DNA of 64,000 bases from Escherichia phage L14, in sequence record OQ992558.1; one strand, 5' to 3'. The position numbers and the translations under genes are program-made. The notes under the pieces were generated by a model. That model did not search any database. It was given only the letters and a program-made list of their open reading frames with translations, and was not told where the DNA came from. Numbering within the stretch: the first letter of the stretch is position 1; each line of letters begins with the position of its first letter. This document shows, piece by piece, positions 13,871-15,978 of this stretch.

Positions 13871-14190
13871 CATTATGTTCAGATAAGGTCGTTAATCTTA
13901 CCCCGGAATTATATCCAGCTGCATGTCACCATGCAGATCAGACTATATCTTCAACTTGTTAAAGCAAGTTGTCTATCGTTTCGAGTCACTTGACCCTACT
14001 CCCCAAAGGGATAGTCGTTAGGCATTTATGTAGAACCAATTCCATTTATCAGATTTTACACGGTAAGTAACTAATCCTGATGAAATTATTAAAGGGTAGT
14101 CCTACAATTTAGCACGGGATTGTCTACTAGAGAGGTCCCCCGTTTAGATAGATTACAAGTATAAGTCACCTTATACCTAGGCCTCAATTA
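13871..14190 (-). other. group I self-splicing intron in td, 320 nt, no internal ORF
   Basis: 5' end UAAUUGAGGCCUAGGUAUAAGGUG..., 3' end ...UAACGACCUUAUCUGAACAUAAUG match recalled T4 td intron ends; exon 1 ends in U, intron ends in G. Confidence 0.85.
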
Positions 14191-14739
14191 ACCCAAGAAA
14201 ACATCTACACTGCGTTGATACCATTGTAAATCAAGATAACCATTACGCACATTAAACTGATAGAACATATGACAAGGTGGTAATGCCATATATTTAAGTT
14301 CAGCTGGATTCCACGCAGAAACAATTTGACGCCTATCACTTGGTAGTTTTTTAATACGATCAATAACTTCTATAATTTGGTCTACACCGCCAAAATCGCG
14401 CCACTGTTTTCCATAAATTGGGCCAAGTTCACCACTATGGTATCCTAAATCTTTTGCCTGATTTTCGTAATTTTCATCCCAAACTGTTTTGCCTTGGATT
14501 AACGAATCATGCTGAATTAATCGTAAATCATTGACATTTGTGCTTCCTGATAAAAACCAAAGTAGCTCAGCAATGCAAGCTTTCCAGGCGAGCTTCTTAG
14601 TTGTTACCGCAGGAAAACCTTTAGTTAAATCCCAGCGTAATTTAGTACCGAATAAAGCAATTGTTCCTGTGCCTGTTCGGTCATCGGTTTCATAGCCATT
14701 TTCAAAAATGTCTTTAATTAAATCTTGGTATTGTTTCAT
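14191..14739 (-). CDS. td: thymidylate synthase, exon 1 (183 aa)
   Basis: TS active-site region ...LPPCHMFYQF...; ORF hits stop UAA exactly at intron 5' end. Confidence 0.9.
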
Positions 14740-14784
14740 TTAGTACCTTATATAAATTATAATACATTTTATGAAGCTAAATAA

Positions 14785-15132
14785 TCAATACGGTTTAGCA
14801 TCAAATTTTCTCTCAATTTCAGGTGTGAAATATAATTCTTTACCACGTTTGGAAAAGCGACCAATAATATGATAATTATTCTCATCAAACGTGATATTAC
14901 CAATATCCATAGCTTTCAACCAAATATCGATATTTCTATCCAGCTTTATGTCAAAATTCCAATACGGAGAACTATTACCGAAAATACTGCAAGCGGATTC
15001 AGTGAAACAACTGCTATAAATCTTGTCTTTAGGAACTACTAATTGATAGACACCTTTAATAAACTGAGGACCCTGCCACTTTGGCTGTTTCGTGTCTTTT
15101 TCTAATAGAATAGGGTAATAATTAAAATTCAT
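14785..15132 (-). CDS. hypothetical protein (115 aa) inserted between frd and td
   Basis: Clean ORF filling a ~410-bp gap where T4 frd and td directly overlap (recalled). Confidence 0.5.
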   Translation of the reverse strand: MNFNYYPILLEKDTKQPKWQGPQFIKGVYQLVVPKDKIYSSCFTESACSIFGNSSPYWNFDIKLDRNIDIWLKAMDIGNITFDENNYHIIGRFSKRGKELYFTPEIERKFDAKPY

Positions 15133-15151
15133 ATTTCCGCCACGCGTTATT

Positions 15152-15978
<827 letters not shown>

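Follow-up and report, generated by a model that had tools for sequence, protein, structure and literature searches.

In bacteriophage T4, the dihydrofolate reductase gene frd and the thymidylate synthase gene td overlap directly by 4 nt in an ATGA junction (frd end 1649, td start 1646; AF158101.6 locus), and the direct overlap had been correctly stated in a preliminary description of the DNA investigated here. The closest described equivalents of the present locus are td.1 of T2H, whose record (AY262132.2, ABI48932.1) provides the gene name, RB32ORF229c of RB32 and the protein family PHROG 1928. They represent the same gene with 97–100% protein identity and the same position between frd and td. 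A literature search by gene, family and locus-tag names retrieved no paper discussing td.1.

Two classes of T-even phage genes lend themselves to comparison. The homing endonucleases of the Seg/Mob type resemble td.1 in their location between conserved genes and their variable presence among T-even phages, but Td.1 has no motif of a nuclease and falls below most of them in size, and its gene is passed on vertically at a single site across genera under strong purifying selection. The small early ORFs nrdA.1/DUF4326, nrdA.2, frd.1/DUF5417, frd.2 and frd.3 likewise keep their places beside genes of nucleotide metabolism; their sequences are unrelated to td.1 and, unlike td.1, they have been kept in T4. 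On the structural level, the OB-fold single-stranded nucleic-acid-binding domains of SSB, RPA, Teb1, Cdc13, S1 and HIN served for comparison.

The td.1 locus

In the window, i.e., the whole analyzed DNA stretch of 64 kb, the distance from the frd stop codon (15152–15154, minus strand) to the td ATG (14739) was measured as 412 nt, in agreement with the separation of about 410 bp given in the preliminary description. The 115-aa ORF reported in between exists, starts with ATG (Table 1) and encodes a protein that begins with MNFNYYPILLEKDTKQPKWQ. A junction-spanning stretch of 701 nt is 100% identical to the record of Escherichia phage U115 (MZ753803.1), in which the ORF corresponds to U115_245 (100% match; annotated as “hypothetical protein”) and in which an RBS feature is annotated in the spacer between frd and td.1. 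The T2H equivalent exhibits 99% protein identity with a single different residue, and hmmscan aligned residues 4–111 of the protein with positions 2–125 of the 126 positions of the PHROG 1928 profile (E=1e-35). The ORF is td.1, an already catalogued member of PHROG 1928 and a genuine, strongly constrained protein-coding gene. Regarding its neighbors, Frd of the window differs from T4 Frd by three amino acids, and the listed exon-1 ORF of td terminates at a stop codon located at the very beginning of the intron.

Table 1. Features of the frd–td junction (positions in the 64-kb window)
Feature	Position	Strand	Evidence
td.1 CDS, 115 aa, 13.7 kDa, pI 8.5	14785..15132	minus	ORF listing, record match, dN/dS, AF2
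frd–td.1 spacer, 19 nt, weak RBS GGA at 15136-15138	15133..15151	minus	sequence
frd, dihydrofolate reductase, upstream neighbor	15152..15733	minus	ORF listing, U115 record
td exon 1, thymidylate synthase, downstream neighbor	14188..14739	minus	ORF listing, U115 record
td.1–td spacer, 45 nt (14740-14784), plus td.1 stop codon	14740..14788	minus	sequence
td RBS AAGG	14746-14749	minus	sequence
9-bp direct repeat TAAATGAAA, left copy, spans frd stop codon	15150..15158	minus	sequence
9-bp direct repeat TAAATGAAA, right copy, spans td start codon	14734..14742	minus	sequence

Several further features were observed in the vicinity of td.1. A consensus scan of the td.1–td spacer revealed a sigma-70-like match on the minus strand (TTGATT, 14783–14788; 18-nt spacer; TATTAT, 14759–14764), whose TATTAT is overlapped by a perfect TATAAT (14756–14761). 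The complete promoter-like match (14756–14788) is preceded by the MotA-box-like sequence AGCTTCA and might serve as a separate td promoter in phages with td.1. JoYop and PHB12 do not contain this match, and the overlap of frd and td leaves no such element in T4. A group I intron interrupts td (13871–14190, minus strand; Rfam RF00028 at 13919–14200, 70 bits, E=3e-17); this intron has a length of about 320 nt and no I-TevI reading frame. In most intron-bearing relatives the td intron is about 700 nt longer and holds the I-TevI gene, many relatives are intronless, and the ORF-less form was found with at least 99% identity in 34 of 742 matching records. On the other side of the locus, an 81-aa ORF (U115_247, PHROG 3183; 15733–15978, minus strand) is located between frd.1 and frd and abuts the frd start; it is also present in T6, RB32, PYps35T and KarlGJung, and T4 has a 71-nt gap instead.

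The annotation of the locus varies among the public records. In some phages of the BASEL collection td.1 is designated “putative homing endonuclease”, in BW-1 and SF2-1 “putative glucose-1-phosphate adenylyltransferase”, and in APTC-EC-2A, ESCO58, ADUt and IsaacDaniel it is labeled as a second “dihydrofolate reductase”, while the frd homolog of Potts1 is listed as “putative single stranded DNA-binding protein”. The searches conducted here lend support to none of the four labels.

Distribution of junction types within Tequatrovirus

The ORF had been proposed to be an insertion at a conserved junction. Our comparison of the junction across T-even genomes showed instead that td.1 is present at this position in most T4-like genomes, so the insertion reading fails. 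The full td.1 allele was detected by megablast in 354 of the 536 records that match the junction. A tblastn search recovered a td.1 protein with at least 90% identity in 362 records and a homolog with less than 60% identity in 218 further records from other genera. In a ranking sample of 60 evenly spaced rows, about 40 harbor td.1, 12 a different insert of 207 bp, and five the T4-type overlap, the latter belonging to T4 itself, RB55, JEP6 and G28. The phages T2, T6, RB32, RB51 and RB68 contain td.1 in every case. An exact-junction scan of IMG/VR retrieved no match for the T4 type, five for the td.1 type and six matches in five contigs for the type with the 207-bp insert.

Inside this alternative segment of 207 bp lies a 68-aa ORF (PHROG 9550) that was found in 147 records. 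About a quarter of the Tequatroviruses harbor this ORF, which overlaps both of its neighbors, frd and td. Copies of the 68-aa ORF are located at L003:946-1152 (Yersinia phage PYps35T), L009:2173-2379 and L032:1801-2007. The Tequatrovirus junction accordingly occurs in three states, with td.1 alone in about two thirds of the cases, only the 68-aa ORF in about a quarter, and neither of the two in about 8%, i.e., T4 and its close relatives. A profile search of the whole T4 genome, covering all 1,804 ORFs of its six frames, revealed no td.1 family member (best E 0.23), and an equivalent search of the 64-kb window found no td.1 paralog elsewhere.

td.1 homologs and tandem paralogs in other genera

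The location of td.1 is conserved over large evolutionary distances. Every record of a distant genus that was opened (about ten) contains a td.1 homolog with 26–47% identity between frd and td, namely, Jiaodavirus Mineola, Kanagawavirus PEi26, Roskildevirus Cronus, Gelderlandvirus STML-198, Marfavirus Potts1 and Kpn BM7, the Karamvirus-like Enterobacter phage MY742, and Moon-like and CHI14-like phages. The equivalent of Mosigvirus PHB12 at the same junction is 93% identical. In all 16 loci examined in IMG/VR (14) and Logan (two contigs) frd is located directly upstream of td.1, one paralog away in Cronus, and td follows downstream in 15 of them; the remaining contig, L013, stops short of td.

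PEi26, Cronus, MY742, STML-198, Potts1 and Kpn BM7 harbor a deeply diverged tandem paralog of 114–144 aa adjoining the td.1 ortholog, which we designate td.1b (paralog-bearing loci: L005:1817-2173, L006:1059-1493, L009:1817-2176, L010:1809-2156, L011:1790-2143). The two copies match each other with an hhalign probability of 90–98.5%, both belong to PHROG 1928, and they share the junction as well as the motifs L-L-E-x-D-x-x-Q-K-K-W, H-G-I-Y and G-R-F-x-K-x-G-x-x-x-x-F; the structural matches in BFVD range from TM 0.64 to 0.81. Most td.1b paralogs differ from td.1 by an insertion of about 19 residues after Q-K-K-W, which is not evident in STML-198, and td.1b is missing from the window and the other Tequatroviruses examined. 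The tandem arrangement raises the possibility of a heterodimer, which would be a homodimer instead in Tequatrovirus.

MY742 and Kpn BM7 contain, in addition to the two td.1 paralogs, the 68-aa ORF known from the alternative Tequatrovirus allele just upstream of td; the copies of MY742 and of this allele share 68% identity. The spacing of the genes differs as well. JoYop and the other genera have no frd–td.1 spacer, and frd overlaps the td.1 start by 1–23 nt, with the exception of Cronus with its intervening paralog. The td.1–td spacer comprises just 13–15 nt in JoYop (13 nt) and PHB12. In JoYop (L014:265-882, 872-1219) frd is 12 codons longer and has an overlap of 11 nt with td.1; this more compact junction resembles that of the distant genera.

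Selection on td.1

In 579 of the 580 phage records recovered by tblastn, the td.1 reading frame remains intact along 80% or more of its length. The sole exception is Pu-Krd-SF1 (PQ249395.1, 24526–24872), where the match is split into two pieces without an annotated gene, which may reflect a frameshift or a sequencing error. Codon-level comparisons with T2H, KarlGJung, T6, RB32, JoYop, PHB12 and a metagenomic relative resulted in pairwise dN/dS values of 0.0–0.144 for td.1 and of 0.03–0.33 for frd in the same pairs; for T2H, T6, JoYop, PHB12 and the metagenomic relative, the td.1 values range from 0.014 to 0.144. Among the 15 nucleotide differences to T2H only one changes an amino acid, and the 40 differences to Mosigvirus PHB12 account for eight amino-acid changes. 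Purifying selection on td.1 is strong and at least equal to that on frd. Synonymous divergence from PHB12 is of the same order in both genes (dS 0.74 for td.1, 0.51 for frd). Cross-genus protein identities amount to 31–47% for Td.1, 44–49% for Frd and 78–84% for Td, and in the metagenomic contig L013 Td.1 reaches 66% compared with 48% for Frd. This combination of constraint and conservation is the signature of a vertically inherited protein, neither of a chance ORF nor of an arms-race gene.

Probable loss of td.1 in T4

The window harbors two copies of the 9-bp direct repeat TAAATGAAA, which are 416 bp apart and frame td.1 (Table 1), whereas the T4 junction contains exactly one. The RB32 record already remarks on RB32ORF229c that it is “flanked by 9 bp repeat”. 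Deletion from one repeat to the other would yield precisely the junction found in T4, …TATAAATGAAACAATACC…. The position of the 68-aa ORF behind two td.1 paralogs in MY742 and Kpn BM7 suggests that a cassette of three genes is ancestral, and the simplest reading of the compared sequences would be the order frd, td.1a, td.1b, 68-aa ORF, td, in which the start of one gene overlaps the stop of the preceding one. From this cassette, Tequatrovirus lineages would have retained td.1, the 68-aa ORF or nothing. We infer, from parsimony across genera rather than from a rooted phylogeny, that the frd/td overlap of T4 probably represents a derived minority state that originated by precise deletion. Given such an ancestral cassette and an inter-repeat deletion in T4, the ORF of the window would not be an insertion; rather, T4 would have lost td.1. 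JoYop, which lacks the left repeat and whose frd runs 11 nt into td.1, documents that the repeat is not an insertion scar of all td.1 alleles. We regard the identity and evolutionary history of td.1 set out here, i.e., an ancestral gene of this block that was lost in T4, as highly probable.

Sequence family and predicted structure of Td.1

The statement of the preliminary description that the protein contains no recognizable motif held up: searches of Pfam, NCBIfam, PADLOC and PDB sequences with the single protein and with a 23-sequence profile were empty, and matches to TagH and dynein (E 0.04–0.07) are at chance level. A word-indexed search for homologs found three close relatives, and an exhaustive HMMER search of 1.84 billion representatives resulted in 22 clusters. 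Two of them (P0021, P0023) were left out as spurious repetitive eukaryote-like sequences, one being a reverse-transcriptase fragment. The 20 genuine clusters have 95–116 aa, the members of the td.1 family altogether 95–119 aa, with no domain fusions, and the family is confined to T4-like phages of Enterobacterales.

In the 23-sequence alignment, Q16, W19, G27, G91, K95 and G97 are invariant, L9, Y29, N79, F93 and F102 nearly so, and R92 is present in 20 of the 23 sequences; there is no conserved cysteine or histidine and no catalytic motif. Family members are mildly basic, with a median pI of 8.6, and rich in aromatic residues, and Td.1 of the window has a net charge of about +2. AF2 modeling on this alignment reached a pLDDT of 92 and a pTM of 0.84, and an earlier model from four near-identical sequences (pLDDT 59) was discarded. 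The model contains strands at residues 6–12, 27–34, 38–40, 48–50, 62–64, 80–82, 86–96 and 99–104 and a helix at 68–76. Td.1 is predicted to be a small soluble beta-rich domain with one helix, whose b1-b2-b3-helix-b4-b5 order resembles that of an OB-fold. The OB-fold order, with the helix between strands 3 and 4, is compatible with the model as far as the order of elements is concerned. A significant superposition on OB-folds was not obtained, all structural matches lying below significance; the weak ones are mostly OB-fold domains that bind ssDNA or RNA. Matches in BFVD comprise only uncharacterized proteins of T4-like phages, the Cronus paralog among them. The td.1 family may have a new fold.

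Function of Td.1 and alternative explanations

We consider it somewhat more likely than not that Td.1 is a non-enzymatic binding protein. We propose that its synthesis would precede replication and use the polycistronic frd-td-nrdA message, which it would share with DHFR and TS, that its translation would be coupled to that of frd in most genera, and that it would assist deoxynucleotide supply in the thymidylate/folate branch, either as a dispensable accessory protein or as an adaptor. Candidate partners are Frd, Td and other members of the dNTP-synthesizing complex, or else a ligand in the form of a nucleic acid or nucleotide. The putative binding surface, deduced from sequence and topology, comprises the conserved loop Q16-x-x-W19, residue Y29 and the hairpin G91-R-F-x-K95-x-G97. 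T4 and about a quarter of the Tequatroviruses, which carry the 68-aa allele, grow without td.1, which is therefore dispensable in laboratory hosts. From the operon position and the translational coupling we infer that Td.1 might be a member of the dNTP-synthesizing complex, in which it would associate with Frd, Td, gp42, NrdAB or gp32; since T4-like phages as a rule keep their gene order, the position of td.1 alone proves no pathway link. That Td.1 is specifically tied to the DHFR/TS pathway as an accessory or adaptor is conceivable but doubtful, and the explanation as a whole, comprising identity, history and the mechanism of a binding protein, is tentative and falls somewhat short of an even chance.

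The competing view with the greatest weight regards Td.1 as a host-directed early protein for takeover or anti-defense, which would neutralize a host protein outside thymidylate metabolism and whose operon position would be nothing but inherited synteny. Small prereplicative T-even ORFs of known role are mostly host-directed, which counts in its favor, as do the dispensability of td.1, its polymorphism in Tequatrovirus with three alleles and complete absence from T4, the tandem duplication and divergence within the family, and its restriction to T4-like phages of Enterobacterales. We nevertheless consider it rather unlikely, because dN/dS values of 0.01–0.14 and a divergence no quicker than that of DHFR are unlike an arms-race gene, and because td.1 keeps the same position and its coupling to frd from genus to genus and was never found elsewhere. 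A DNA-mimicking anti-restriction protein is rejected on the basis of charge, as Td.1 is not acidic (pI 8.5, net charge about +2; family median pI 8.6). The lack of a PADLOC match is uninformative regarding anti-defense, because this library covers defense and not counter-defense proteins. Alternatively, Td.1 could be an OB-like nucleic-acid-binding regulator, which would bind RNA or ssDNA and either control the frd-td-nrdA message (its translation or its stability) or participate in replication or recombination. The order of elements in the AF2 model, the prevalence of ssDNA- and RNA-binding OB-folds among the weak structural matches, and the mildly basic, aromatic-rich composition with conserved W19, Y29, F93, R92 and K95 would fit such a role. 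Yet these matches are all sub-significant, the net charge is small, there is no sequence similarity to known nucleic-acid-binding families, and a link to the td intron is missing, because td.1 accompanies an uninterrupted td in T2 and distant genera; a helper function in group I intron splicing is rejected for the same reason. We regard this regulator as improbable.

Two further explanations concern the nature of the gene itself. A free-standing homing endonuclease, or a remnant thereof, inserted between frd and td would match the label in the BASEL phages KarlGJung, AndreasVesalius and WilhelmHis, the presence/absence polymorphism between conserved genes with a flanking 9-bp repeat, and the abundance of such elements in T-even genomes (PMC2988022). 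It is effectively ruled out by motifs, size, distribution and selection. GIY-YIG, HNH, LAGLIDADG and other nuclease domains are absent from the 23 family members in Pfam searches at E values up to 1, which yielded scattered chance matches only, and the family has no conserved His or Cys. The 115 aa of Td.1 compare with 140–141 aa of MobE and SegC and 204–264 aa of most Seg/Mob proteins in the T4 record, it occupies a single site across at least eight genera with vertical inheritance and a divergence that tracks frd, it is under strong purifying selection, and the left repeat is missing in JoYop. Even less credible is a functionless chance frame or decaying pseudogene, for which the absence from T4 and the possibly frameshifted copy of Pu-Krd-SF1 might be adduced; it is ruled out by the selection and conservation analysis, i.e., by the intact gene in all records but this one, by dN/dS values far below 1 and by retention at the same locus down to 26% identity, and the confident AF2 model likewise speaks against it.

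Returning to the accessory or adaptor in deoxynucleotide supply, a more far-reaching version can be envisaged, which we offer as a long shot: the td.1 family and its tandem paralog may have an unseen fold and join the two enzymes of the thymidylate cycle in T-even-type phages as a third component without enzymatic activity. Such a component could, for example, be an adaptor that links DHFR to TS and so permits substrate channeling, or alternatively tether both enzymes to the replication-linked dNTP-synthesizing complex. If this is true, it would have been overlooked by the field because the model phage T4 deleted td.1.

Implications

As a feature that is annotated in hundreds of genomes, td.1 is ordinary and known. 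The remaining interest lies in a constrained, phage-restricted family without a detectable relative of solved structure that is always located between DHFR and TS. If Td.1 has no role in nucleotide supply, it represents another conserved phage protein of unknown function; if it does act there, it would be a new component of a classic pathway. For the T-even phages, the textbook ATGA overlap of T4 would be derived and not the ancestral layout, making T4 unrepresentative of its own genus at this junction.
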